This document shows, one piece after another, positions 2,517 through 28,936 of a DNA stretch of 32,000 bases. The position numbers and the translations under genes are program-made. The stretch is from Ferroglobus placidus DSM 10642 (GTDB lineage: Archaea > Halobacteriota > Archaeoglobi > Archaeoglobales > Archaeoglobaceae): positions 1,320,001 through 1,352,000 of the forward strand of contig NC_013849.1 in assembly GCF_000025505.1 (NCBI RefSeq), given 5' to 3'. The notes beneath the pieces are model-generated. The model made no database searches, had not been told where the DNA came from, and saw only the letters and a list, made by a program, of their open reading frames with translations. How positions within the stretch are numbered: position 1 is the first letter of the stretch; each line of letters opens with the position of its first letter.

Positions 2517-4082
2517 ATGATCTTTGCCGGTAGATATTACTCGCTCCTACAAAAGTACATACCGGAAAGCTGGGAAAATCTTGTAGAAGTTGAGGAAGGG
2601 GAGGAAGAGGCAGTACTCGAAGACTACTGGATTTTCAAACCATTCGTTTACGTGAGAATCGTTGAAGACGAGAGGGGAATTAGGTACAGAATCTTCGAAC
2701 CGAGTTTAACTGCCGAGGAGTACGAACTGCTCGAAGAAATCTATACGAATCTTTACGACATTCTCATTCTGAGGGACTTGAGGATTAGCATTGAGGAAAA
2801 AGCCGAAATTCTGGAAAAAGCTTTTAGAGACGTTCTGGAAATAATCCCCTACGAATTGGATGACGTTTTGATAGCGAAGTACAACTACTATCTCTTCAGG
2901 GACTTTTTGGGATTCGGTCCGATTGATCCTCTCCTCAACGACCCTTACATTGAAGACATAAGCTGCGACGGATACAAAATTCCGGTATACGTCTTTCACA
3001 GAAAGTACGGTCACATTCCGACAGACGTTGTTTTCGCAGAGGCGGAACTTGACAAATACGTCCAGTTTCTCGCTCAAATTTCAGGAAAACACTTGAGTCA
3101 CGGAAACCCGATGATAGACGCTACTCTGCCAGACGGTAGCAGAATTCAGGCAACCTACGGAACGGAAATTACGACGAGAGGGTCTTCCTTCTCGATTAGA
3201 AAGTTCTCAGAAAAACCGCTGATACCCCTCGACTTAATCAGGCTCGGGACGTATTCTGCAGAGCAGATGGCTTACTTCTGGCTATGCGTAGAAAACAAGT
3301 TGAACGTGCTCGTAATCGGAGAGACGGCTGCCGGAAAAACCACGACGCTTAACGCCATTTTGATGTTCCTCCCACCGAACGTCAAGGTGATATCTATAGA
3401 GGACACGAGAGAGATTTCTCTTTATCATGAAAACTGGATTGCCGAAGTGACGAGGGAAGCTGTTACCGAAGATGAGAAAGAAATAACTATGTACGATTTG
3501 TTAAAAGCTGCTCTGAGGCAGCGACCCGATTACATAGTCGTAGGAGAGGTTAGGGGCATCGAAGCTCAAACTCTGTTTCAAGCGATGAGTACCGGACATG
3601 CCGCATATTCGACTCTGCACGCTGGAGACATCCATCAAGCTATTTACAGACTTGAAACCGAGCCGCTTAACGTTCCGAGGAGTTTGATTCAATTCCTCGA
3701 CGTCGTTGCCGTGCAAACCCAGTGGACTAAACAAAAGGTCAGGCTGAGAAGGTGTAAAAAGATGTACGAAATTCTCGGCATAGATCCGAACGATAAAAAC
3801 TTGCTGATAAACGAAATTTTCAGCTGGGATCCGTACTCTGACAAGTTCGTTCAGGTTAATCCGTTGAGAAACCTTGAGAGGATAGCGGTGATTAGAGGGG
3901 AGAGTCCGGAAGACACAATAAGGGAACTTCGTAACAGAGCTGAGTTTTTAAAATACCTCATGAAGAGGGGTGTGGAGGACTACAAAACCTTCACGAGCAT
4001 GATTCATTCTTATTACAAGAGTCCGGAGGAAACTTTCGAAGTCATTTACGAAGAGGGAAAGCTCCATGAGCTCGAAGCTTGA
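2517..4082 (+). CDS. Type II/IV secretion-family ATPase (ArlI/FlaI / PilB / TadA-like), type IV filament assembly ATPase
   Basis: It carries Walker A GETAAGKTTTLNAIL, Walker B/Asp box RQRPDYIVVGEVRG and His box TGHAAYSTLHAG. The 521-aa length fits. An SD-like AGGAGAG lies at 2501-2507 and a TATA-like TTATATA at 2454-2460. Confidence 0.9.
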   Translation: MIFAGRYYSLLQKYIPESWENLVEVEEGEEEAVLEDYWIFKPFVYVRIVEDERGIRYRIFEPSLTAEEYELLEEIYTNLYDILILRDLRISIEEKAEILEKAFRDVLEIIPYELDDVLIAKYNYYLFRDFLGFGPIDPLLNDPYIEDISCDGYKIPVYVFHRKYGHIPTDVVFAEAELDKYVQFLAQISGKHLSHGNPMIDATLPDGSRIQATYGTEITTRGSSFSIRKFSEKPLIPLDLIRLGTYSAEQMAYFWLCVENKLNVLVIGETAAGKTTTLNAILMFLPPNVKVISIEDTREISLYHENWIAEVTREAVTEDEKEITMYDLLKAALRQRPDYIVVGEVRGIEAQTLFQAMSTGHAAYSTLHAGDIHQAIYRLETEPLNVPRSLIQFLDVVAVQTQWTKQKVRLRRCKKMYEILGIDPNDKNLLINEIFSWDPYSDKFVQVNPLRNLERIAVIRGESPEDTIRELRNRAEFLKYLMKRGVEDYKTFTSMIHSYYKSPEETFEVIYEEGKLHELEA

Positions 4083-5970
4083 GCACATATCAATATTTTA
4101 CCCGAAAGTCCTCGCTAAGTACTACTTCAAGAAGTATTTGAAGAATAAAAGCAATTACGAGTGGCTTGAGGGAAGCCTAAGGGCTTCGAGGATTCCGCTG
4201 ACTGTTCCCGAGTTTCTTGCTGTAGTTAATTTCTACACGATCCTCTCAATTCCGTTAGCAATTTTTCTCTCGTACCTATCTTACCTAATTTCCGAAGACG
4301 TTTACGGCTTCGTCGTTAACGTAATTCCCGTTCGCTTAGGAATTCCAAATCCTAAGTTCTTCTTCTCTCTTGGATTAGCGTCTCTCATTGCTTTGCTAAC
4401 GCTGCTCGTTGTGAGGAACATCTTGCTGAGAATACCGTCTTTTATAGCGAGAAGCAGAAAAGCGAAGATCGACGCAACGCTTTATCACGTCGCAAGTTTA
4501 ATGCTCGGAATGGCTAAGGGAGGAACCCCTCTCCTCGAGCTTTTTAGAACTGTAGCAGAGGAAAGGCACGTCACGGGGGAAGTGGGGAAGGAATTTTCGA
4601 TAATAGTCAGGAACGTTACGGTTTTCGGAAAGGACATAATAACTTCGATAAAAGAAGTGGCTGCTACAACTCCCTCTCAAAAATTGAGAGATTTTCTGGA
4701 AGATCTTGCAGGCGTTTTAGAAGGAGGAAGTTCTTTATCTGAATTCTTGGAATTTAAAATAGCTCACCTCGCCGAAGAAAGGGAGAGAGCTTACCAGCTT
4801 TACATAAGCAGTTACGAAATCCTTGCTGAAATATATGTTGCTATGCTCATCGTAGCCCCTCTTTTCTCGCTAATCGTTTTCGTGGTCATGAACATGATAG
4901 GGGAGAGCACGATCAATTTGATGAAGGCGATGGTTTACCTCTACATTCCCATCGGCGGTCTATTCTTCGTATACCTCGTAAAATCGTCAAAACTCTTGGA
5001 AGAGAAAAAATGGAGAGGAGAGAGCGTAGTTGAAGTTTACTTGCACGCCACGGTCAACGGCAAATCTTCGAGGTTAAAGAGGAAGAGCGGAATTGTCGTG
5101 TTCATGAAGAGAGCGTCTAAGTGGTTGGAAAGAGCGATTAAAATGAGGGCTTTTCTGAGGAATCCAAAATTAATTTTCCTTCTTTCGATACCGGCTGCGG
5201 CGGTGTTTGCAGCGGTTTTCTTTAAAGTGATGAAAATGGAAAGCTTGCTTACGTTCTCTTTCGTAATTGCAACTCTTCCTTACGTCCTTCTTTACGAATA
5301 CAGATCCTACAAGCTGAGAAAACTTGAAAAGCACCTTCCGGACTTCTTAAGGGGGTTGGGCAGTTTAAACGAGAGCGGGCTCAATATCGTCACGGCAATA
5401 AAAGTTTTGTCAGCAACTCAGCTCGGAGTTCTTACCGAAGAGGTAAGAAAGATTAGAAAGGATATAGAGTGGGGAAGGCTCGTTACTGAAGCTCTGGAAA
5501 GGTTCGAAGATAGAGTCGGAAGCTCTCTCGTTTCAAAAGTTGTTTCGATAATAAACAAAGCGTTAATGGCTACGAGCAACGTAAAAGCTGCTATATTGGC
5601 TGCCGCAGCGGACGTTGAGTTACTTCTCGACTTCAGAGAGAGGTTGAAGAATGCGATGTTCACGTACATGGTCATAATATACGTTACCTTCGCAGTATTC
5701 CTGTTTACGGTAGTCGTGGTTCTTCAGAACTTCATTTCCGTTTTTTCGAACATCTCTGTGGGGCAAATAACCGGAATATACTTCAACCCTCCAGATCTTG
5801 CGAATCTAACGTCCCTCTTCTATCACGCTTCTCTAATCAACGCCCTCGTTAACGGAATCATAGCTGGAGTTATGAGCGAGGAGAGCGTTTCAGCCGGACT
5901 TAAACATTCAATAATTTTAATGCTTACCAGCCTGCTCGTTTTCGCCTATGTTGTGGGGGTGGGAATATGA
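4066..5970 (+). CDS. FlaJ/ArlJ / TadB-TadC-like polytopic membrane platform protein
   Basis: The 634-aa multi-TM protein overlaps the ATPase gene by 17 nt. It has two cytoplasmic helical T2SS-F-like segments (ATLYHVASLMLGMAKGGTPLLELF and LPDFLRGLGSLNESGLNIVTAIKVL), each followed by TM helices. Confidence 0.85.
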   Translation: MSSKLEHISIFYPKVLAKYYFKKYLKNKSNYEWLEGSLRASRIPLTVPEFLAVVNFYTILSIPLAIFLSYLSYLISEDVYGFVVNVIPVRLGIPNPKFFFSLGLASLIALLTLLVVRNILLRIPSFIARSRKAKIDATLYHVASLMLGMAKGGTPLLELFRTVAEERHVTGEVGKEFSIIVRNVTVFGKDIITSIKEVAATTPSQKLRDFLEDLAGVLEGGSSLSEFLEFKIAHLAEERERAYQLYISSYEILAEIYVAMLIVAPLFSLIVFVVMNMIGESTINLMKAMVYLYIPIGGLFFVYLVKSSKLLEEKKWRGESVVEVYLHATVNGKSSRLKRKSGIVVFMKRASKWLERAIKMRAFLRNPKLIFLLSIPAAAVFAAVFFKVMKMESLLTFSFVIATLPYVLLYEYRSYKLRKLEKHLPDFLRGLGSLNESGLNIVTAIKVLSATQLGVLTEEVRKIRKDIEWGRLVTEALERFEDRVGSSLVSKVVSIINKALMATSNVKAAILAAAADVELLLDFRERLKNAMFTYMVIIYVTFAVFLFTVVVVLQNFISVFSNISVGQITGIYFNPPDLANLTSLFYHASLINALVNGIIAGVMSEESVSAGLKHSIILMLTSLLVFAYVVGVGI

Positions 5971-7274
5971 ACGATAAAGCTCTCTCGCCAGTCTTGGGAT
6001 TCGTGTTAGTTTTCGCGATAATAATTGCCGGAATCGGGATGGTTCAAACGCTTTTCGTTCCGGCATGGATGAAGAGCGAAGAAGCTAAGCATTACTTCAA
6101 ACTCAAGGAAGAGTTTGAAAAATTGGACGATAAAATTATAGAAGCTGGAAACTTCAAATATTCGAGCTTGGACCTTCCCACTACGCTGAGGTACTCGAAA
6201 TATCCGTTTCTCATGACTCCTAATGTCGTTTCAAGCGAAGTGTGGGTTGAGGAAATCGGAAAAATTCGAATATTTGTGAACGGAAGTTCTGAGCCTGTAG
6301 AACTACCTCTAAAACTTATTGGGTTGAGACCGAATTATCTATACTCGCAAATGAACCCGGAAGTTTTCGTTCTGGGCTGTTACTTTTCCCTTGGAGAGAA
6401 AGCATCGTTAATCGAACCTTTCGAAATTGTTTCCGATAACTCAGCTTACATACTCGTTAGCGATTTGGAAAAAGCTGGAGAGCAGATGAGATTCTACGGA
6501 AATCACAGAGCTTATGAAGAAGCTAATTGGGTGAACATTTCCCTTTACCCGGAAAAGCTCGACAAATACGGGGGATTGTTGGAGGAGCTTAAGAAATTGC
6601 TCGATGAACTCAACGTAACATCGAGTGTTGGAAACAACTTCTTAAACTTCAGCACAAAAGATAAAGTTGTTCACCTTTACACAGCTTCAGACTCGGAGGT
6701 TAGGCTTAACGATTTGATAAAGCAAAGTGCCGTTGGAGATGGAGATAGGTTTAAAATAACCCTCGGAAACAGTTCCCACGACTTCTACACTTACAATGAA
6801 ACTGGGCAGCAGCTTAATTATAATGAAACATTCACAGTTAGTAAAAGCAATAACCAAGAATGGCTTGCCGGAGGAACTTTGTACATAACCGGCTACACTC
6901 CTTATTCTAACAGTATAATGAACGTGACGATAGAGTATGTCTATTGTGCTTCTCCAGATAATAATAAAAACGATAAAGAATCTTGTGATGTAGATGAATT
7001 TGATAGAGTAACTGTAAACACTCCGTGGAGAACGTTCAGCGATGGATATTTCCAGTTTCCGGTAACTGTCGCGTTAGCTTACAGAGTTAAAGGAGGGGCG
7101 GATACGCAATTTGGAATGCCTTACTGGATAAACGTGACGATAGAAGACCCTAACGGAGGTAAAACAGTCATTCCGATATTTATCGGAGAAGAAATTCAGC
7201 CCAAGAGTGGCTCTAATAGTAGTAGCTCTAATGAGGAAGAGAGCAAGAAAAAAAAGAGTACGTATAACGACTAA
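5967..7274 (+). CDS. Large pilin-like protein with archaeal class III (type IV prepilin) signal peptide
   Basis: The N-terminus MNDKALSPVLGFVLVFAIIIAGIG fits the K-A/G | L-S-P-V prepilin peptidase site plus a hydrophobic helix. An ATGA overlap links it to the platform gene. About 10 N-X-S/T sequons are present, and the C-terminal tail is low complexity (SGSNSSSSNEEESKKKK). Confidence 0.8.
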   Translation: MNDKALSPVLGFVLVFAIIIAGIGMVQTLFVPAWMKSEEAKHYFKLKEEFEKLDDKIIEAGNFKYSSLDLPTTLRYSKYPFLMTPNVVSSEVWVEEIGKIRIFVNGSSEPVELPLKLIGLRPNYLYSQMNPEVFVLGCYFSLGEKASLIEPFEIVSDNSAYILVSDLEKAGEQMRFYGNHRAYEEANWVNISLYPEKLDKYGGLLEELKKLLDELNVTSSVGNNFLNFSTKDKVVHLYTASDSEVRLNDLIKQSAVGDGDRFKITLGNSSHDFYTYNETGQQLNYNETFTVSKSNNQEWLAGGTLYITGYTPYSNSIMNVTIEYVYCASPDNNKNDKESCDVDEFDRVTVNTPWRTFSDGYFQFPVTVALAYRVKGGADTQFGMPYWINVTIEDPNGGKTVIPIFIGEEIQPKSGSNSSSSNEEESKKKKSTYND

Positions 7275-7293
7275 AATTCTTGTTTAGCAAACC

Positions 7294-7304
7294 TTAAATA
7301 TAAT
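7294..7304 (+). promoter_or_regulatory. TATA-like box upstream of the actin-like gene
   Basis: TTAAATATAAT is centred about 36 nt upstream of ATG 7335, within a 60-nt intergenic gap. This implies a separate transcription start with a short leader. Confidence 0.4.
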
Positions 7305-7334
7305 CCACCAAAAATTTAAACGGGGGTTGCCGTT

Positions 7335-8384
7335 ATGAGCGAGGTGGAAGAGAAGAAGGAAGCCGAAAAAGTGGAAGGTAATGTGGTTCCGATTGGAATG
7401 AAAGTGGGTTCTCAGAGGACCGTTATAGCGAAGGGGGACGAAGTAATCGTTGTGGAGACCTGCATAAAGGAGAAGGAGAATCCGATAACCGGAGAAAAGG
7501 ATTACGTAGTAGGTAACGAAGCGGCTGAGCTTTACGGAGATGAAGCTGTTTACATGCTTCGCGGTGGCTTGCCGGGGAATGAGGAAGAAGCAGAACTCCT
7601 GAAAATTTTCCTGACGAAAATAGCGAAGGCGTATGAAATTCCGGAGAACTCTTACGTCACCTACGGAATTCCGTCGACTGAAACTGAAGAGGGTGTTAAT
7701 TTATTTAAGAAGGTCATAAGTCAGGTTCCAATTGGCTGGGCTGGAAAGGAAGTTTGGAACGACTCGTTTTTAGCTGCTTTAGCGCTTCCCGAAGGTTTGG
7801 GGATGCTCGAAAAAACGTTCATAGTCGTTAACCTCGGCTCTTCAACCACGGATGTCGTGGCTGTTAGGAAGGGAGAGATAGTTTTCAGTATGGTCACCGG
7901 AGAAGTTTCTGGGGACTTAGTTGACAGGTGGATAAAGAACGAGATAATGAATCTCACGAGAGGTGCCGTAAACGTAGATCTGTCTACTGCGAGGGAGTAC
8001 AAGGAGAAGTACGCGAATTTAAAGGAGTGGAAGAGGGTGGAAGAGAAAGTGCAGCTTTTCGAAAAAGGACAGTTCAGCTTCAGGCTCGATGAAGCTGTCA
8101 ACAAACCGGTGGAAAGGTATTTGGACGCTCTCGTAGACTTCATAACCCTCGAATTCCTGCCTTCGTTAGCTGAATTCAACTTCAAAGCTTACAAAGTCCT
8201 GCTCGAATCTGAGTTCATTCTAACCGGAGGCATGGCTGAAATTCCGGGTTTAAAGGAGAAGTTTGCAGCAAAGCTTTCAGAAGCTCTCGGATTTGGAGTT
8301 AAGGTTAGAAGTCCGGAAAATCCGCTAACAGCTTCAGCGAGGGGTGCTTTACTAATTTCGCAACTCAGGGTGAGGAGAGGGTAA
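7335..8384 (+). CDS. Actin-fold protein, MreB/ParM/PilM-like, with substituted catalytic acidic residues
   Basis: By-eye collinearity with MreB: IGMKVGSQRT (phosphate 1), YVTYGIPSTETEE, FIVVNLGSSTTDVVAV (phosphate 2), FILTGGMAEIPGLKEKF (adenosine motif) and NPLTASARGA. Confidence 0.75.
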   Translation: MSEVEEKKEAEKVEGNVVPIGMKVGSQRTVIAKGDEVIVVETCIKEKENPITGEKDYVVGNEAAELYGDEAVYMLRGGLPGNEEEAELLKIFLTKIAKAYEIPENSYVTYGIPSTETEEGVNLFKKVISQVPIGWAGKEVWNDSFLAALALPEGLGMLEKTFIVVNLGSSTTDVVAVRKGEIVFSMVTGEVSGDLVDRWIKNEIMNLTRGAVNVDLSTAREYKEKYANLKEWKRVEEKVQLFEKGQFSFRLDEAVNKPVERYLDALVDFITLEFLPSLAEFNFKAYKVLLESEFILTGGMAEIPGLKEKFAAKLSEALGFGVKVRSPENPLTASARGALLISQLRVRRG

Positions 8385-8906
8385 ATGACTGAAGAGCTAT
8401 TAAGCCGGGCTGAGAATTTATTAAAAAAATGGGACTCCCTCTTTGAGGAATTGAAGAAATTCGTTGATGAGGACCTTCCTAAAATAGAAACCAGTATAAA
8501 AAAGGTGGTTGAAAGAATGCATTTACTTGAGAATAGAGTCGATAAAATAGAGAAAAAGTTAGAGCGAATTGTTTTCGAAAACGAGAGTTTAAAAAAGACA
8601 TTCAACAATCTTAGGGAGGGGGTATTTACTTTAGAGGCGGAAATAAACGGAAAGATTGAAGGGTTAAAGTGTACATTTGAAACTCTTGAAAACAAGGTGG
8701 AAAATCTTTTGAAATATGAATCAGAAAAAAAAGCTGGTGAAGTTGGGAGCGAGGAACTAGAAAAGTTAAGAGAAGAAATAACAGAATTAAAGAAGAGCGT
8801 TGATCAATTATCTACGGAACTTTCTCAATTGAAAAGTAGTGTTACTGAAAAGTTTTGGTCTGTGAGAGAGAAAAAAGTGGAAAGTAAATCACCAAGAATT
8901 TTGTGA
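8385..8906 (+). CDS. Coiled-coil protein (173 aa, no TM segment), function unknown
   Basis: Its ATG immediately follows the actin-like stop codon. The charged heptad-rich sequence (ENRVDKIEKKLERI, LENKVENLLKYE, LEKLREEITELKKSVDQLSTELSQLK) indicates a coiled coil. Confidence 0.7.
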   Translation: MTEELLSRAENLLKKWDSLFEELKKFVDEDLPKIETSIKKVVERMHLLENRVDKIEKKLERIVFENESLKKTFNNLREGVFTLEAEINGKIEGLKCTFETLENKVENLLKYESEKKAGEVGSEELEKLREEITELKKSVDQLSTELSQLKSSVTEKFWSVREKKVESKSPRIL

Positions 8907-9712
8907 AAAATATGGAAATATATCCAGACTTTCTAGAATTAAAAAAGAAGCTTAAGAAAATTATTGAAGATTTTTATTCACTGAGGACAAAGGGAGCCAA
9001 GGTAATCTCTTTTCCGTCGGGGAAGGGTGGTGTGGGTAAAACAACAATAGTTCTAAATCTTGCGGCAGCTCTTGCGTTAAGTGGAAAGAGAGTAGCAATT
9101 GTTGATTTAAACCTTGCTTTACCTAATGTGTCTTTGTTTCTCCAGAATACTCCTAAAAAAACTGTAACGCACTTTCTTTGTGATGAAGCTGAACTAAGTG
9201 AAATTTTAGTTAAATTAAATATAAAAAAAGCAGAGATAGATGTTTTTCCAGCAGAATCAATTGTTAATTTAGGGAAAAAAGTTAAAATAGAACGAATCAG
9301 GGAGCTTATATTATATTTAAAGCCGAACTACGACTACATCCTTTTCGACCAATCTCCGGGCTTGTCGAAATTTGCGATCTATCCAACCCTTGTTGCGGAT
9401 GTAGTCTTCGTCGTTTCGGCAGATATAAAACCAGCTTATTTGGATGCGATTAAAGTTAGAGACGTTCTCGAGGAGAGCGGAGTTAATTTCAACGGATTCG
9501 TCGTGAACATGACGAAGAGAAATAATCTAAGGTACTTTTACAACGAGAGAGTTTACGCAACGATACCTTACGACTGGAGGTTGAAAAACGCTTTTTCTTC
9601 TGGAAAAACTGTTTTTCAGCTTCGTTTCGGCTTTTTATCTTCAAGCAAGAGAGCTTTTTCGAAATTCGCGGAAAAGCTAATTGAAGATTTTCCCCCAGAA
9701 AGAGTATGGTAA
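8903..9712 (+). CDS. MinD/ParA-family ATPase (deviant Walker A)
   Basis: SFPSGKGGVGKTTIVLNLAAALA is the deviant Walker A KGGxGKT, and the body is MinD-like (VAIVDLN, ILFDQSPG). The start is either GTG 8903, overlapping the upstream stop, or ATG 8912. Confidence 0.88.
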   Translation: MKNMEIYPDFLELKKKLKKIIEDFYSLRTKGAKVISFPSGKGGVGKTTIVLNLAAALALSGKRVAIVDLNLALPNVSLFLQNTPKKTVTHFLCDEAELSEILVKLNIKKAEIDVFPAESIVNLGKKVKIERIRELILYLKPNYDYILFDQSPGLSKFAIYPTLVADVVFVVSADIKPAYLDAIKVRDVLEESGVNFNGFVVNMTKRNNLRYFYNERVYATIPYDWRLKNAFSSGKTVFQLRFGFLSSSKRAFSKFAEKLIEDFPPERVW

Positions 9713-10233
9713 ACAAGTCTGAAGTTTTGAGGAAATCCGTACATCTTCTTGGTCTCCTTTACATTCCAGCCCTCTTTTATCTTGGAAAAGATTTTATGAG
9801 TGCTGCAGTTCTTTTACTGACAGCTTTTGCCTCTTTTTTAGAGATTATAAGAGCTAAAAAGGAGATTTTTCCCGATTCTATCCTTAGAGAATACGAAAAG
9901 AGGGGAGTTGGAGGCTACCTCTACACTGGTTTGGCATTCTCAATAATTACTCCCCTTTTTCCTCTAAAAGCTTGTGTAATAGCTGCCATTTGTGCCTTTG
10001 CTGGGGATGGCTTAGCCGGAATTTTCAAAAAAGTGAACAGAAAGCTGTCTTTTCCGACGTTTTTTACATTCTCTTACATTCTAAGTTTAACGCTCGGCTT
10101 GGACTGGAAGCTCACCTCAGTTACAATAATTATCTCGGCAATGTTCGATGGAAGAAAGTTTTTGAACGACAACTTCACGATTCCGATTTCCGCAGCGATT
10201 ACCTACCACTTTTTGACAACTTTGTTTGGGTAG
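9706..10233 (+). CDS. Small polytopic membrane protein, CTP-dependent polyprenol (dolichol/phytol) kinase-like family
   Basis: The N-terminal RKSVHLLG matches the RKxxHxxxG motif and FAGDGLAGIFKK matches the GDxxAxxxG motif, as recalled from dolichol/phytol kinases (cytidylyltransferase family 1). It has about 5 TM segments and overlaps the MinD-like gene by 7 nt. Confidence 0.5.
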   Translation: MVNKSEVLRKSVHLLGLLYIPALFYLGKDFMSAAVLLLTAFASFLEIIRAKKEIFPDSILREYEKRGVGGYLYTGLAFSIITPLFPLKACVIAAICAFAGDGLAGIFKKVNRKLSFPTFFTFSYILSLTLGLDWKLTSVTIIISAMFDGRKFLNDNFTIPISAAITYHFLTTLFG

Positions 10234-10252: not shown

Positions 10253-10327
10253 TGCTCCGGCCGGGATTTGAACCCGGGTCACGGGATCGAGAGTCCCGTA
10301 TGATTGGCCGGGCTACACCACCGGAGC
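10253..10327 (-). tRNA. tRNA-Glu: tRNA-Glu (anticodon CUC), no encoded CCA
   Basis: The reverse complement folds as a cloverleaf: GCTCCGG TG GTGTAGCCCGGCCAATCATAC GGGAC-CTCTCGA... The acceptor stem is GCUCCGG/CCGGAGC. The anticodon stem is CGGGA/UCCCG with loop CU-CUC-GA. The T arm is CCGGG-UUCAAAU-CCCGG and the discriminator is A. Confidence 0.93.
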
Positions 10328-18486: not shown

Positions 18487-19758
18487 CTTTTTTAGCACGA
18501 GTTCCTTTTTCCTCAAAGCAGCTTCGAAAGCTTTGTCAACTCTTTTCTTCAACTCCTCGAAGTTTTCCGGTCTTTCTTCGCCGACGAGCTTCTTGATTGG
18601 CGTATATGCGCTCTCTCTAAACCTCGGTTTTAGCTCTTTTTCTTCCCCATCTTCAATTAAATAAGCTCCCTCTCCTTCTTCAACCCATCCAACTTCTTCG
18701 ACTCTCACTCCCGCTTTTTCGATCTCCTCAGCGATCTCTTCAGAGTCATTTTCCGGGCAGATTATCATGAGGGAGTCTATGGAAACGCCGAGGAAGTCTA
18801 TCTCCAGCTCTTCAAGCATGTTCAGAACTTTTTTGTTTACCACACCCCTCAGCTTCTCGTATTCGAAAACGAGCTTGGTCTTCGAAACCCTCGATATTTC
18901 CATCGCATCTCCCCTCACTCCTCCGTTCGTAACGTCGGTCATCGCGTGTATTTTTTCTACATGCTTCAAAGCAGCTTCAGCAGCTTTGATGAAGTCTACG
19001 TTTATCGTCTCGTCGACGATTTCGTGTCTTCCGTAGTAGATGGCTGTTGTGGCTATCGTTCCTCCTCCGGCACCCTCGGTCATGAGAATTACGTCTCCCT
19101 TCTTAGCATCCCTCCTCCTCGTCACCTTCTTTCCAACTCCTACGCAGCCAACAGCTCCGGTCATTCTCTCTCCTATAACCATGTCCCCTCCTATTCTCAA
19201 CGTGCTTCCGGAAACGAGAGGCACGTTCGTTGCCTCGCTTATAGCCATAATTCCGGCGAGGTGGTCGAATATCTTGGAAACGTCTCCGTCGTCGGCTACG
19301 TGAATATCGGAAAACAAAGCTAAAGGCTTGGCACCCATTACGTAGACGTCTCTCATAGCCGCTCTCGCAGCGTGAAAACCGGCTATGAAAGGAAACTCGC
19401 TGAGTCTCGAGTGAATTCCGTCGACGGAAATAGCCAAGTAATACTCTCCGATTCTAACGACTCCCGCATCGTCGAGCTCGCTTCTGCACATCTCCCCTAT
19501 TTTCGAGTGAACGTAGAAGTCTCCCTCTCCTCTGCTCCCCACTCCGAATTCTCCCATCTTCACGCCACTTTTGAAGTAGTCGAGTATTGGAGTAGTTTTT
19601 GAATAAGCGTTTTTGACTTCTAAGAAAACGGCTTCAGCAATTTTTTCAGCTTTTTCGATAGGAATATCCTTCACTTCGGCTATTAGCTCGGCAAGCTTCT
19701 CCTCTTTGCCTTTTTTTAAGAGTATTCTCGCGTATCCCTCTAAATCCATTCTTCTCAC
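18466..19758 (-). CDS. AIR synthase-related protein (PurM/ThiL/HypE superfamily)
   Basis: The N-domain motif is LDDAGVVRIGEYYLAISVDGIHS and the body is PurM-like (MGAKPLALFSDI, GGDMVIGER, TDVTNGGVRGD). Its 3' end overlaps the MazG 3' end by 21 nt in convergent orientation. Confidence 0.75.
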   Translation of the reverse strand: MRRMDLEGYARILLKKGKEEKLAELIAEVKDIPIEKAEKIAEAVFLEVKNAYSKTTPILDYFKSGVKMGEFGVGSRGEGDFYVHSKIGEMCRSELDDAGVVRIGEYYLAISVDGIHSRLSEFPFIAGFHAARAAMRDVYVMGAKPLALFSDIHVADDGDVSKIFDHLAGIMAISEATNVPLVSGSTLRIGGDMVIGERMTGAVGCVGVGKKVTRRRDAKKGDVILMTEGAGGGTIATTAIYYGRHEIVDETINVDFIKAAEAALKHVEKIHAMTDVTNGGVRGDAMEISRVSKTKLVFEYEKLRGVVNKKVLNMLEELEIDFLGVSIDSLMIICPENDSEEIAEEIEKAGVRVEEVGWVEEGEGAYLIEDGEEKELKPRFRESAYTPIKKLVGEERPENFEELKKRVDKAFEAALRKKELVLKKLRKVPS

Positions 19759-25486: not shown

Positions 25487-25749
25487 AAAAGGGAACTAAA
25501 GAAATGCTTGATCTAGTTGAAGAAAACATTGTCACTGCAAGAAAAAGTGCAGAAATCGGTCTTTATCGAAGTGCCTGTTTCTGGGCTCAGCAAGCAATCG
25601 AACTTGTTTTAAAAGCTTTTTTAGCGGAAAATGACGCATTGGAAAAGAAAAGCACGATCAAAACCCCACCACCCTTAAATATTCTCCTGCAGGCTTACCT
25701 TCGGTGTCTGAAATGCCGTTGCTTAGGGAGGAGGACAGAGAGTATCTGA
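25483..25749 (+). pseudogene. Truncated HEPN-domain remnant
   Basis: It has an ATGA-type overlap with the MNT gene. The N-terminal part resembles HEPN (WAQQAIELVLKAFL vs HSQQAIEKFLKAFL in copy 1), but the THD and RYP regions are missing or unrecognisable. The reading frame runs into the promoter and start of the next gene. Confidence 0.6.
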
Positions 25750-26385
25750 AAAAGGAGTTCGAAAAAGTTTTGAAGGACAAAGTAAGAGTTCTCGGATTCG
25801 TCAGGGGTGAGGACTGCAAGTACTGTAGGGAAACTAAGGAATTGCTTGAAGAGGTCGCTTCGCTTTCGGATAAAATCGAGCTTGTCTTTCCCGAGAGCGG
25901 AGAAGAGTACGGGATAGAGGAAGTTCCGGCTGTGGTCGTTCAGGACGAAAAAGGGGAGCTTGGGACGAGAGTTAGATTCCTCGGAATTCCCTCGGGCTAC
26001 GAATTCACCGCTCTGATAAAAGACATAATGTACGTTTCAACGAGAACTCTCGAGATATCGGAGTCGACGATTGAAGAGCTGCAGAATATCGAGAACAAAA
26101 TTGTAATTGAAGTTTACGTAACTCCGAGCTGTCCCTACTGTCCGAGAGCAGTTTTGCTTGCGCACCAATTTGCAATGGTTAGCGAAAAAAATAACCGGAG
26201 TTATGATTGAATCGTACGAATTTCCTGCAAAGGCTGATGAATGGAACGTTATGAGCGTTCCCCACACCGTGGTGAAGAATGTAGAAAAAGGTAGCGTTGG
26301 AGAGTTCGTAGGGGCGTATCCAGAGAACTACCTACTAAAAGTTGTCAAAGACGTTGATGCCGGAAAGAACGTGAAGCTCAGCTGA
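25713..26385 (+). pseudogene. Protein disulfide oxidoreductase (two thioredoxin folds, glutaredoxin-like PDO), split by a frameshift in an A7 run
   Basis: The first unit has CKYC and the second has CPYC. ORF 25704-26210 ends 20 nt after the A-run at 26185-26191, and the family sequence continues in ORF 26158-26385 (ITGVMIESYEFPAKADEWNVMSVPHTVV). The span is 673 nt (3n+1); removing one A gives a 223-aa protein. Confidence 0.8.
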
Positions 26386-27598
26386 AGGAATAAACTTTCC
26401 TCATTTTCCCAGTTTTTATCAAATACTTTTCATCATCCCTCGCTATCACTCTCGCTGCGTGCTCAGCCAAAGCTTTGTAAAATTCGCAGTAATAGGACTT
26501 GTTAAACATGCTCCCGCCCTCTGAATATATCTCAGCTGGACAGGGGGAGCCGCAGAGATGCTTAGCCCAGCACTCGGTGCATTCGGGAATTCTTTCGACG
26601 ACTCTTTCGAGCATCTCTGGAAACGGATTTTCTGGATCGATCTTCTCAAGATCTTTTCTGAATTCGTTAAATCCGAGAAACTCTCCGCAAGGATAAATTC
26701 CGTCCGGAGCTAAGCAGACAAAGAGCTTTCCTCCCCCGCATGGAGAAATGTCGCACTGTAAAACTCTTGAAGTTGGTGCGATAAATCCTAATACTATGTT
26801 TGCGAAATCACCTATCACTATTCTCTTTCCCTCCTTCGTAAGCTCTATGGATCTCTCAACAGCTTTAATATACTTTTCAGCGAGCTTAATTGGATTCTCC
26901 CTTAGTTCTCTTGCCTTTTCCGTCGTCCCCCTAACGGGATTCATGAGGGCTACGCTAACGTAATCCGAGAGAAACTCAACCATTTCCGCAAGATACGGAG
27001 CGTTAATTTTCGTGATGGTAGTGATAGAGGTTCTCGGGCAATCGTAATCTGATAGAACTTTTAGGGTGTTTACGGCTTTCTCGAAATGCCCTTTTCCTCT
27101 CAAAGCGTCGTTAATTTCCTTTTTCGGAGCATCCAACGATACTCCGACGTTAAATTCTCTTTCAGCAAAGAAATTCAAGTCCTTCTCGGTTACGTCAATG
27201 CAGTTCGTTTGAATACCAAATTCTAAATCGAAGGTTTCAGCCACTTCAAAAATAATCTCCCTCGCCAAAATCGGCTCAGCCCCGTGGAAAATTACGTTTT
27301 CAACATCGCTAAATTTTTCGAGAGCTTCTTCTATCTTCCTAATGCTCAAAACGTTTTTTCTTCTCCTTCTTTCCCTCGGAATGTAGCAGTACGGGCAGTT
27401 TGCATTGCAATCATCGATTACGTTTAGATAGAGGGTTCTCACATCTACAGTAAATCTGAACTCGTTTAGCTTAGCGAGAAGTTTTTCAGCGACTTTTTCT
27501 CTGAGATCTTCAAAATCTTCCCCTTCTTCGTAGACTGCCCAGAAGAGGGAATCTGGATCTAAAACGAAGTTCTTCTCGCCGAACTTCCAGAACTTCAT
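26378..27598 (-). CDS. Radical SAM enzyme with a C-terminal SPASM domain
   Basis: The CX3CX2C motif CNANCPYC begins at residue 64. The full SPASM pattern is present: VCLAPDGIYPC, then CTECWAKHLCGSPC (CX2CX5CX3C), then a distal Cys (YYCEFY). The SD sequence GAGGTGAT lies 4-11 nt upstream of the ATG. Confidence 0.9.
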   Translation of the reverse strand: MKFWKFGEKNFVLDPDSLFWAVYEEGEDFEDLREKVAEKLLAKLNEFRFTVDVRTLYLNVIDDCNANCPYCYIPRERRRRKNVLSIRKIEEALEKFSDVENVIFHGAEPILAREIIFEVAETFDLEFGIQTNCIDVTEKDLNFFAEREFNVGVSLDAPKKEINDALRGKGHFEKAVNTLKVLSDYDCPRTSITTITKINAPYLAEMVEFLSDYVSVALMNPVRGTTEKARELRENPIKLAEKYIKAVERSIELTKEGKRIVIGDFANIVLGFIAPTSRVLQCDISPCGGGKLFVCLAPDGIYPCGEFLGFNEFRKDLEKIDPENPFPEMLERVVERIPECTECWAKHLCGSPCPAEIYSEGGSMFNKSYYCEFYKALAEHAARVIARDDEKYLIKTGKMRKVYSFS

Positions 27599-27614
27599 GT
27601 TATCACCTCAAAAA

Positions 27615-27692
27615 TTAAAAGGGGGAGTTTTTACTGGCGATGTAATGGGTTAGTCCTCCCTCCGCTTTGCACTCGAGCTTGTAAGACTTCAT
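27615..27692 (-). CDS. Unannotated 25-codon ORF (MKSYKLECKAEGGLTHYIASKNSPF) immediately upstream of the rSAM/SPASM gene; candidate peptide substrate
   Basis: I translated it by hand from the 150-nt intergenic gap. Its ATG is 27692-27690 and its TAA 27617-27615, which is 16 nt before the rSAM ATG. A TATA-like TTAAAATA is centred at -28 from its ATG. No homology check was possible. Confidence 0.4.
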   Translation of the reverse strand: MKSYKLECKAEGGLTHYIASKNSPF

Positions 27693-27716
27693 CGAGGATA
27701 GAATTGACTAACGGAG

Positions 27717-27724
27717 TATTTTAA
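27717..27724 (-). promoter_or_regulatory. TATA-like box (TTAAAATA, minus sense) for the small ORF / rSAM transcript
   Basis: It spans -25 to -32 relative to the small-ORF ATG. It is the best promoter-like element between the acyl-CoA dehydrogenase stop (27749) and the rSAM start. Confidence 0.4.
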
Positions 27725-27748
27725 CGGAACGTTTTTATTACATGCGTA

Positions 27749-28936
27749 CTACATCATGGGGTGTTTTCTAACTTTGCTAAGAGTTGAGCCGTACTTTCCT
27801 AAGATCGAGTTGGCTACGATCTCAAGCTCGACTTCCCTCGTTCCTTCGTATATCTCGAGGACTCTCACATCTCTGTACATCCTCGAAATTGCTGAGGAGA
27901 CGAACCCATGCCCACCGAAAATTTGCAAAGCCTCCGTCACGGCTTTCTGAGCAATTTTAGCTGTGTAATATTTAGCCATAGCCGTCAATCCCGGATCTGA
28001 TTTGTGGTTTTTGTCGTAGTAAAGAGCGGCTTGATAAGCTAAAAGTCTTGCAGCCTCGATTTCGGTTCTCATTTTCGCGAGTTTCTCTCTCGTCATTTGA
28101 AAGTCGATAAGCTTTCTTTCGAAGAGTTCTCTATTCTTAGCGTATTCTAAAGCGAGCTCAAAAGCTCCTTGGGCTATGCCGACAGCCTGAAAAGCAACGT
28201 GAATTCTCGTCACGTTGAAGAATTCGACGGCTTGGTAAAACCCTCTCCCCCTCTCGCCAATTAAATTTTCTTTGGGAACCTTCACGTTTTTAAAGAAAAC
28301 TTCGGCTGTGTCGCTCGCTCTAATTCCGAGTTTGTCCTTCATCTTTCTCGCTTCTAAACCTTCAGTTCCCCTTTCAACGACGAAAACGCTCAGTCCGTGA
28401 TGTCTCTTCTCACCTTTATCGGTTCTCGCAAGAACGATGTAAAAGTCTGCTATGCTTCCGTTTGTAATAAATATTTTGTTTCCGTTTATAACGAAGTGTT
28501 CGTTTTCTTCTCTGGCAGTCGTTTTTATTCCAGCCAAATCACTTCCCGATTGAGGTTCTGTAAAGCATGCGCAGCTTATAGCTTCACCTTTCGCTAAAGG
28601 AGGCAAATACTTTTCTTTTTGATCCTCTCTGCCGAAGAGAAGTATCATCTCTGAGCCGAAGGTTGATGATAAAATCAAACCCAATCCGGCGTCGACTCTC
28701 CAGAACTCCTCAACAGCTAAGCAGTATTCTGTTATTCCGTACCCGGCTCCGCCGTACTCTTCGGGAAAGAACAATCCAATAAATCCGAGTTTTGCCGCTT
28801 TTTTCCAAAGCTCGAAAGGAAACTCTTCTTTTTTGTCGAACTCCTCAGCGTACTTCGGAAACTCCTTCTCGGCAAATTCCCTCGCAGCCTCCTTTATCTC
28901 TTTCTGCTCTTCCGTAAGAATTTCCTCAGCCAGCAT
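27749..28936 (-). CDS. Acyl-CoA dehydrogenase
   Basis: CFTEPQSGSDLAGIKTTA, FITNGSIADFYIV, QIFGGHGF and IYEGTREV are hallmark ACAD motifs. The protein is 395 aa. Confidence 0.9.
   Translation of the reverse strand: MLAEEILTEEQKEIKEAAREFAEKEFPKYAEEFDKKEEFPFELWKKAAKLGFIGLFFPEEYGGAGYGITEYCLAVEEFWRVDAGLGLILSSTFGSEMILLFGREDQKEKYLPPLAKGEAISCACFTEPQSGSDLAGIKTTAREENEHFVINGNKIFITNGSIADFYIVLARTDKGEKRHHGLSVFVVERGTEGLEARKMKDKLGIRASDTAEVFFKNVKVPKENLIGERGRGFYQAVEFFNVTRIHVAFQAVGIAQGAFELALEYAKNRELFERKLIDFQMTREKLAKMRTEIEAARLLAYQAALYYDKNHKSDPGLTAMAKYYTAKIAQKAVTEALQIFGGHGFVSSAISRMYRDVRVLEIYEGTREVELEIVANSILGKYGSTLSKVRKHPMM

Follow-up and report, generated by a model that had tools for sequence, protein, structure and literature searches.

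A 25-codon gene upstream of a radical SAM/SPASM gene in Ferroglobus placidus forms with it a probable CbpA/CbpB peptide-modification pair

A 25-codon gene precedes a radical SAM/SPASM gene

We analyzed a 32,000-nucleotide stretch of the Ferroglobus placidus DSM 10642 genome (NC_013849.1, positions 1,320,001 to 1,352,000), referred to as the window, and all F. placidus coordinates below are positions within it. An initial annotation, made from the letters alone, had drawn attention to a minus-strand open reading frame (ORF) of 25 codons in front of a radical SAM/SPASM gene and had suggested that the two encode a precursor peptide and its maturase. Reading of the minus strand and an ORF listing placed this ORF as described: it runs from an ATG at 27692 to a TAA at 27615–27617 (span 27615..27692), encodes MKSYKLECKAEGGLTHYIASKNSPF, and lies inside the 150 nt that separate the stop codon of an acyl-CoA dehydrogenase gene (27749–27751) from the ATG (27598) of the radical SAM gene. 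The latter, also on the minus strand (26378..27598), encodes an enzyme of 406 amino acids (aa) that is 100% identical to an F. placidus protein on record. A TATA-like box, TTAAAATA, is found at 27717..27724, −32 to −25 from the ATG of the small ORF, and the 16-nt spacer between the two genes, TTTTTGAGGTGATAAC, contains a strong Shine–Dalgarno (SD) sequence, GAGGTGAT (27602..27609), 3 nt before the ATG of the enzyme gene; both signals had been noted in the initial annotation. The 6.5 kb surrounding it are overlapped by 79 ORFs with a length of 20 aa or more. A 25-codon ORF is thus not significant by itself, and the case for it was built on homology and conservation.

Both proteins matched curated models of one family. 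The peptide scored 53.6 bits against the NCBIfam model TIGR04164, "modified peptide precursor CbpA" (cutoff 35, E 1.1e-14), in a full-length alignment of its residues 1–24 to profile positions 1–25. The enzyme scored 396.6 bits against TIGR04163, "peptide-modifying radical SAM enzyme CbpB" (cutoff 375, E 1.2e-118), a marginal match, and also matched PF04055 in Pfam; the Pfam SPASM model PF13186 gave no match at E 0.01 for this protein and was recorded for many of its homologues. An exact-sequence look-up returned the peptide as RefSeq WP_083777759.1, "modified peptide precursor CbpA [Ferroglobus placidus]", and NCBI already names homologous enzymes CbpB. The description of the ORF as unannotated therefore holds for the ORF track supplied with the sequence, from which it was missing, but not for RefSeq. 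The ORF shows a match above the model cutoff, a same-strand position just upstream of the enzyme gene, and a Cys followed by a G-L-(T/S/A)-H-(Y/F) core. By its full-length model match, and by the conserved pairing and the substitution pattern described below, it is a genuine gene, cbpA, which codes for the predicted substrate peptide of the adjacent enzyme. The enzyme combines its own match above the cutoff with a CX3CX2C motif and SPASM-type auxiliary-cluster Cys residues. We are confident, from these matches and from the conserved pairing described below, that the two genes are cbpA and cbpB and make up a two-gene cassette for peptide modification, one of a family that NCBIfam/TIGRFAMs already lists; the proposed bicistron of precursor and maturase is supported on the same grounds.

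Membership in other radical SAM/SPASM families was evaluated with the respective NCBIfam models, and the next-best of these all lay far under their own cutoffs. They were the ranthipeptide maturase PapB (NF047865; 88.5 bits, cutoff 340), DynA (83.3 bits), the SCIFF maturase family that includes CteB (TIGR03974; 81.9 bits, cutoff 425), and the anaerobic sulfatase-maturating enzyme anSME (TIGR03942; 74.3 bits, cutoff 349.45). The peptide, with one Cys, matched no SCIFF model, and its Cys is followed by K-A-E-G. The mycofactocin enzyme model MftC (TIGR03962) gave 53.6 bits against a cutoff of 265, the peptide ends in SPF and lacks the conserved Glu-x3-Tyr of PQQ precursors, and no partner genes of either pathway are nearby. 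Assignment to a SPASM family that does not act on peptides, such as heme-type AhbD, had been named beforehand as an outcome that would speak against the pair. The scores for AhbD (TIGR04545; 45.8 bits, cutoff 500) and NirJ (TIGR04051; 45.9 bits, cutoff 515) were far too low for this, and the enzyme falls in the peptide-modifying family TIGR04163.

The peptide is conserved together with the enzyme

Conservation of the small ORF was evaluated in seven genome-derived loci, from Ferroglobus, Geoglobus, Archaeoglobus, Nezhaarchaeales, Methanoliparum, and one further metagenome-assembled genome (MAG), with enzyme identities of 42–90%. In all seven, a same-strand small ORF ends 5–30 nt before the enzyme gene, and the encoded peptides share the pattern C-x3/4-G-(G/A)-G-L-T-H-(Y/F)...SPF-stop. 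A metagenome scan with an enzyme-only alignment (A1) as the query provided 88 sources with homologous loci; as the query held only the enzyme, the presence of the peptide is an unbiased outcome. A same-strand peptide was found just upstream of the enzyme in 84 of the 88 loci, and the other four have less than about 235 nt of upstream DNA. A search of 28,742 six-frame stop-to-stop segments from all 88 sources with a seven-sequence peptide hidden Markov model (HMM) gave no other match under E 0.05. The conservation upstream of orthologues that the initial annotation had held to be decisive is thus present.

In each of the 56 distinct peptides, the stretch that runs from the core to the C-terminus contains a single Cys, and an aromatic residue stands at C−4 or C−2. 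A G-L-(T/S/A)-H-(Y/F) block (T 34, S 20, A 2; Y 32, F 24) follows 4–7 residues after the Cys. The invariant residues of F. placidus CbpA are Cys8 and G13-L14-T15-H16-Y17. The GG pair, to which the initial annotation had called attention, belongs to this conserved block and is not a double-glycine leader-cleavage site. The alternating pattern of residues ahead of the Cys suggests a β-strand.

Comparison of cbpA with the orthologue from a Ferroglobus MAG revealed six synonymous changes and two conservative ones (I18V, A19V). The terminal Phe is encoded by TTC in 13 loci and by TTT in 10, and the SPF end is therefore kept at the protein level. As judged from these substitution patterns, purifying selection on the CbpA peptide is shown, and the aligned loci likewise show that the CbpA/CbpB pairing is conserved across archaea and bacteria. 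These results also bear on the alternative that the ORF has arisen by chance, or acts only as a regulatory upstream ORF, within a 94-nt 5′ untranslated region of a radical SAM gene whose product acts on another substrate. The abundance of short ORFs around cbpA would favor such a reading. However, both archaea and bacteria retain the amino-acid sequence although their DNA has diverged, the peptide matches its HMM strongly, the substitutions are biased towards synonymous ones, and the terminal tripeptide is retained with varied codons. Conservation effectively refutes the chance-ORF reading, and we give the alternative as a whole almost no weight.

Predicted structure of CbpB

To describe the enzyme, an AlphaFold2 model of CbpB was built on 116 homologues (predicted local distance difference test 94.9; predicted template modelling score 0.93). 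The radical SAM [4Fe-4S] motif, C64-x3-C68-x2-C71 (codons at 27386..27409, minus strand), begins at residue 64 as the initial annotation had stated, and its three Cys residues are invariant in the homologues. Residues 1–50 (27449..27598, minus strand) form a mini-domain of three β-strands and one long helix with a conserved DPxxxFW motif and R48. It is smaller than the canonical recognition element (RRE) of RiPPs (peptides that are synthesized on ribosomes and modified after translation), and in the model it could be a candidate element for docking the peptide by strand addition.

The SPASM region (26486..26755, minus strand) was delimited by homologue alignments and by profile alignment to CteB and anSME. 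A Cys-rich C-terminal region that includes CX2CX5CX3C is present there. The count of seven Cys residues that the initial annotation gave for a complete SPASM domain falls one short, as eight are conserved: seven post-core Cys residues are invariant among the 116 homologues, and the eighth, C343, is nearly invariant. F. placidus CbpB has, in addition, one non-conserved Cys in this region, in an FVC motif at about residue 295. The spacing C282-x4-C287-x16-C304...C340-x2-C343-x5-C349-x3-C353...C371 mirrors that of anSME, and two auxiliary clusters are therefore expected. Around the first Cys pair, the profile alignment to CteB and anSME is ambiguous and would fit auxiliary cluster I either with an open site, as in CteB, or with full ligation, as in anSME. 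A Foldseek search against the Protein Data Bank (PDB) ranked CteB first (E 3e-20, template modelling score (TM) 0.73), followed by SkfB, anSME, ChlB, TigE, and SuiB, and sequence and profile searches agreed on CteB as the nearest solved structure.

The resemblance to anSME raises the possibility that CbpB oxidizes the single Cys to formylglycine or another oxidized residue in the manner of anSME, without cross-linking. In addition to the eight-Cys auxiliary-cluster pattern, which fits anSME spacing, anSME is among the closest structures (TM 0.67–0.68) and among the profile matches (E 9e-28). However, the TIGR03942 score is a fraction of its cutoff (74.3 against 349 bits), the motif C/S-x-P/A-x-R, by which anSME recognizes its substrates, is absent, with K-A-E-G after the Cys in F. 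placidus and variable residues across the family, and the invariant G-L-x-H-aromatic block would be left unexplained. We consider such an oxidation unlikely.

Expression signals at archaeal loci

The archaeal loci, which constitute subtype A in the grouping given below, were compared for signals around cbpA. In 11 Archaeoglobi-type loci, an A/T-rich box occupies a fixed position, −32 to −23 from the cbpA ATG, which is consistent with a leaderless or near-leaderless start of cbpA in these loci. Methanogen-type loci have a longer N-terminus and carry an SD sequence before cbpA; therefore, leaderless expression appears to be lineage-specific rather than a property of the whole family. GAGGTG or GGTG stands at the SD position of cbpB in most subtype A loci, and the F. 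placidus sequence agrees with the archaeal anti-SD sequence.

Further upstream, an operator-like tandem palindrome, GTAGTAC-GCAT-GTAATAA, lies at −60 to −43 from the cbpA ATG (27735..27752, minus strand) and overlaps the stop codon of the acyl-CoA dehydrogenase gene. Of 24 archaeal sources, 16, from several lineages, carry the corresponding 18-bp element, GTAnTAC-N4-GTAnTAC (with at most two substitutions), just upstream of cbpA, for example at 3843–3860 in locus L002, 4806–4823 in L018, and 3798–3815 in L006; in L023 it is a perfect palindrome, GTATTACAATTGTAATAC (4761–4778). Elsewhere in all the archaeal sequence searched, only three sites matched, at 19427 in the window (inside an AIR-synthase-like ORF), at 6231 in L004, and at 7822 in L008, and their neighbors were uninformative. 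The palindrome probably serves a dimeric transcription factor as its operator. It may be related to the archaeal "CBL-box" that Rodionov et al. reportedly proposed in 2003 as the site of a B12 regulator.

Directly after the cbpA stop codon lies an oligo-T tract of five T residues (27610..27614, minus strand; TTTTAATTTTT when the Phe and stop codons are counted). At least five T residues follow the cbpA stop in 21 of 24 subtype A loci; for regions upstream of other genes in these loci, the figure is 11%. As the loci are not phylogenetically independent, the nominal significance of this difference is overstated. The tract is a candidate partial terminator or attenuator. Since oligo-T tracts terminate archaeal transcription, we infer that partial termination could reasonably keep the cbpA mRNA above the cbpB mRNA.

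On this basis, we propose that both genes would be transcribed from a promoter directly upstream of cbpA, marked by the TATA-like box, as an mRNA that is probably leaderless. The palindromic operator would control this promoter, and the oligo-T tract would stop some transcripts, leaving more message for the peptide than for the enzyme, while cbpB would be translated from its own strong SD sequence.

Three subtypes and a link to cobalamin in bacteria

The CbpA peptides form three groups: subtype A is archaeal, subtype B belongs to Nitrospirota/Thermodesulfovibrionia, and subtype C belongs to Thermodesulfobacteriota. Subtype A, which includes the F. placidus locus, has peptides of 25–30 aa with almost no leader and an SPF-stop end, encoded 5–31 nt from cbpB. 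Subtype B peptides have a Lys-rich leader and the core ...ISY(R/H)xKCxKTANGL(T/S)HFVMYGDVPKKKMPL, and subtype C peptides read ...SYRRRC...GTGLSHYILL.... The enzymes of subtypes B and C exceed the CbpB cutoff with 505–655 bits, compared with the 396.6 bits of F. placidus. Two bacterial searches each returned more than 2,000 protein clusters (90% identity) at E ≤ 1e-100, many of them named CbpB by NCBI. In subtype B loci such as L080, L067, L054, and L044, the spacer between the cbpA stop and the point where the enzyme match begins measures 100–500 nt (about 500 nt in L080), only part of which is accounted for by an N-terminal extension of the enzyme of approximately 25–30 aa.

To survey the gene context, neighboring ORFs were clustered and the cluster representatives were annotated with Pfam. 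A cobalamin gene (CbiG/CbiH, CbiD, CbiX-CbiC, CobT, CobQ, CbiB, or CobS) flanks cbpAB in 26 of 27 subtype B loci of at least 6 kb, in 2 of 19 subtype A loci, and in none of 11 subtype C loci. An Rfam scan located a cobalamin riboswitch (RF00174, 52–85 bits) directly 5′ of cbpA on the same strand in 12 of 12 subtype C loci (L059, L063 at 4378–4597, L069, L070, L072, L073, L075, L079, L081, L083, L084 at 4320–4505, and L087), about eight of them distinct, with no nearby cobalamin biosynthesis genes. In one subtype B locus RF00174 is likewise directly 5′ of cbpA, and in other B loci a riboswitch stands at the operon start or just after cbpB. By gene context and riboswitch position, bacterial cbpAB is clearly part of a B12 regulon or biosynthesis operon, and in subtype C it appears to be a stand-alone B12-repressed operon. 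This linkage probably explains the family nickname "cobo".

Further observations were made at individual loci. A cobalamin gene adjoins cbpAB in a few subtype A loci, namely CobT directly downstream of cbpB in Methanoliparum-type loci (L005 at 5328–6386, and L020) and CbiX-CbiC in L013, which hints at a B12 association beyond the bacteria. Five subtype A loci contain a gene for a metallo-β-lactamase-fold protein near cbpAB (L017 at 1204–2151, L002 at 1317–1931, and three more), which is absent from the F. placidus window. The metagenomic subtype B locus L074 carries a convergent pair of matches to the Acido-Lenti-1 small RNA, at 2949–2994 (plus strand) and 3022–3067 (minus strand), approximately 1.2 kb upstream of its riboswitch–cbpA unit.

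Proposed modification and role of CbpA

The nearest relatives of CbpB by sequence and fold are thioether-forming or other peptide- or protein-modifying enzymes (CteB, then PapB and the SCIFF maturase). As the peptide has a single invariant Cys with an invariant block downstream of it, and as the nearest relatives form thioethers, our best single guess is that CbpB would form one intramolecular thioether from the Cys to a residue in the G-L-x-H-(Y/F) block. In the proposed reaction, the N-terminal β-strand of CbpA, with its alternating aromatic residues at C−4 and C−2, would dock on the small N-terminal β-sheet domain of CbpB. The enzyme would reductively cleave S-adenosylmethionine, and the resulting 5′-deoxyadenosyl radical would take a hydrogen from a residue in the G-L-(T/S)-H-(Y/F) block. 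The single Cys would then capture the substrate radical to close one thioether ring, and the electron would exit via the two auxiliary clusters. As Tyr and Phe are interchangeable in the peptide, chemistry at a phenolic oxygen is unlikely.

A different outcome for the same gene pair would be a C–C or C–N cross-link, similar to those of cyclophanes or triceptides, that CbpB installs on the invariant His or aromatic residue, with the Cys serving elsewhere, for example in metal binding. The His and the aromatic residue are indeed invariant, and the second aromatic residue ahead of the Cys is found in all 56 peptides; cross-linking or cyclophane-forming enzymes (DynA, YhhB, GrrM/OscB, AmcB, and FxsB) are among the sub-threshold NCBIfam matches with scores similar to those of thioether enzymes; and a Cys/His/Tyr set would suit metal binding in line with the cobalt/B12 context. 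Against this, CteB, a thioether synthase, is the top match by structure and by profile, and no side chain is conserved more strictly than the Cys, which lies 4–7 residues from the G-L-x-H block, as would be expected of a ring-forming partner. We regard this outcome as possible though doubtful, and we retain the thioether as the preferred chemistry.

With regard to the role of the product, most sactipeptides are exported antimicrobial RiPPs, and radical SAM/SPASM enzymes of this class are typical of sactipeptide and ranthipeptide antibiotic pathways, so that a bacteriocin-like CbpA product must be considered. However, no transporter, leader protease, or immunity gene adjoins cbpAB in the NCBIfam/Pfam annotation of the window, in agreement with the initial annotation, which had reported no adjacent transporter or protease, and none recurs with subtype A. 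The core is nearly identical across Archaeoglobi, other archaea, Nitrospirota, and Thermodesulfobacteriota, whereas bacteriocin cores diverge fast. Only seven residues precede the Cys in CbpA, which hence has no separate leader, and its bacterial relatives stand in B12 operons or behind B12 riboswitches. An antimicrobial product is therefore improbable. The near-invariant core in two domains of life, the absence of export, protease, and immunity genes, and the B12-wired bacterial relatives favor instead a product that is probably intracellular, with a conserved housekeeping function tied to cobalamin in the bacterial relatives.

A more specific proposal, which we advance only tentatively and as a speculative extension, is that the product is a peptide-derived cofactor, a metal (cobalt) chaperone, or an accessory factor for corrinoid metabolism that is conserved across domains and made in a single radical SAM step. 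Its synthesis would be repressed by B12 through riboswitches in bacteria and controlled in archaea in the same way through a putative transcription factor acting on the GTATTAC-N4-GTAATAC palindrome. In this reading, the cross-link, from Cys to the Leu, the His, or the aromatic residue, could be of a type that has not yet been described.

Several points weigh against the preferred reading of the pair, from its chemistry to its role. F. placidus CbpB is barely above the cutoff of its own family (396.6 against 375 bits) and far under those of every characterized thioether family (PapB, 88.5 against 340; SCIFF maturase, 81.9 against 425), so that its likeness to thioether enzymes does not fix its chemistry. 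The eight Cys residues in the anSME pattern could fully ligate both auxiliary clusters, unlike the arrangement in CteB, where one auxiliary-cluster site is left open and takes up the substrate Cys. No B12 genes lie within the 32 kb of the Ferroglobus window, the Rfam scan found no cobalamin riboswitch in it or in 23 other archaeal subtype A loci, and cobalamin neighbors are few among subtype A loci in general, so that a B12 link in Ferroglobus is only an extrapolation from its bacterial relatives. Finally, no paper in the literature searched named CbpA/CbpB, their TIGRFAM accessions, or this peptide, and none gave experimental data on any CbpA/CbpB; within that literature, the family is defined by bioinformatics and not by experiment, and for this reason we infer the type of cross-link, the acceptor residue, and the function.

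Significance of the gene pair

Calling cbpA from the genome sequence was a correct identification of a gene that an annotation blind to small ORFs had missed. Locating cbpA and cbpB adds no discovery, because the pair is already known, being modelled as TIGR04163/TIGR04164 and annotated in RefSeq, and the peptide is not novel. The family itself matters: it is very large, occurs in anaerobic archaea and bacteria, has an unusually conserved core peptide, and is tied to B12 in bacteria. The remaining value lies in its chemistry and function and in the comparative details reported here, namely the three subtypes, the B12 linkage by subtype, the archaeal palindrome, and the oligo-T tract. As a thermophilic archaeal pair of only two genes, with a 25-aa substrate and almost no leader, the F. 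placidus locus is a compact and convenient experimental entry point.

Other features of the window

The neighbors of F. placidus cbpAB are unrelated to B12: acyl-CoA ligase and dehydrogenase genes lie upstream, and a convergent protein disulfide oxidoreductase gene (TIGR02187; 25704–26385, plus strand) lies downstream, its 3′ end overlapping that of cbpB by 8 nt. The oxidoreductase gene is split into two frames, 25704–26210 and 26158–26385. The break is at an A7 homopolymer (26185–26191), where a one-base shift would give a full-length protein, and the gene is also called as two in an independent Logan assembly. The split could reflect a genuine pseudogene, transcriptional slippage, or a sequencing error at the homopolymer shared by both assemblies.

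Elsewhere, the window encodes KaiC-like, FBPase, PilB/PilC-like, salactin, ParA-like, HMG-CoA reductase, UbiD, and cation diffusion facilitator (CDF) transporter proteins. A type IV pilus-like cluster on the plus strand (2517–10233) comprises genes for a PilB-like ATPase (T2SSE), a PilC-like membrane protein (T2SSF), a 435-aa protein, a salactin-family actin homologue, a coiled-coil protein, and a ParA/MinD-like ATPase; the actin homologue embedded in it (7335–8384) matched PF25229 with 318 bits. A tRNA gene (10253–10327, minus strand) was the only Rfam match in the window at the gathering threshold.

Comparison with known systems

The F. placidus pair resembles CbpA/CbpB (TIGR04164/TIGR04163) most directly: both proteins exceed the cutoffs, and gene order, strand, and peptide core match those of hundreds of homologous loci. 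It differs in that its enzyme is peripheral, at 396.6 bits compared with 505–655 bits for bacterial members, and in that the archaeal subtype has an SPF end, almost no leader, and, in the window, an upstream palindrome instead of cobalamin neighbors or a riboswitch.

Among enzymes with solved structures, CteB (PDB codes: 5WGG and 5WHY), the maturase of the SCIFF peptide, is the closest to CbpB by sequence and fold, and it shares with CbpB a radical SAM plus SPASM architecture, an N-terminal peptide-binding domain, and a short ribosomal peptide encoded alongside. However, the N-terminal domain of CbpB comprises approximately 50 aa, and the profile alignment begins at CteB residue 94, the N-terminal region of CteB being approximately 40 residues longer. 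SCIFF peptides have six Cys residues; CbpA has one and matches no SCIFF model, and CbpB remains far below the cutoff of TIGR03974. The similarity to CteB is thus resemblance and not membership. anSME (PDB codes: 4K36–4K39) has a similar fold and the same eight-Cys auxiliary-cluster spacing, but CbpB falls short of its model as well, no sulfatase gene is nearby, and CbpA lacks a sulfatase recognition motif.

The thioether maturases PapB and QhpD, also radical SAM/SPASM enzymes, are the second-ranked NCBIfam relatives of CbpB. Both form Cys thioethers to the β or γ carbons of acidic residues. CbpB scores well below their cutoffs (PapB, 88.5 against 340; QhpD, 64 against 453), and CbpA lacks a conserved acidic acceptor (Asp or Glu) after its Cys.

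Compared with PqqA/PqqE and MftA/MftC, CbpB is far from the mycofactocin enzyme in score (53.6 against 265 bits), no PqqB/C/D-like or MftB/D/E-like partners are adjacent, and the E-x3-Y motif ascribed to PqqA and the C-terminal G-V-Y ascribed to MftA are absent from CbpA. Since Tyr and Phe are interchangeable in CbpA, a cofactor based on a tyrosine hydroxyl is unlikely. In other respects these systems are similar: in each, a very short and highly conserved precursor lies beside a radical SAM/SPASM gene, with no export machinery and with a housekeeping-like distribution. By this analogy, the conserved CbpA core and the B12 wiring seen in bacteria would fit a cofactor logic of the PqqA/MftA type.

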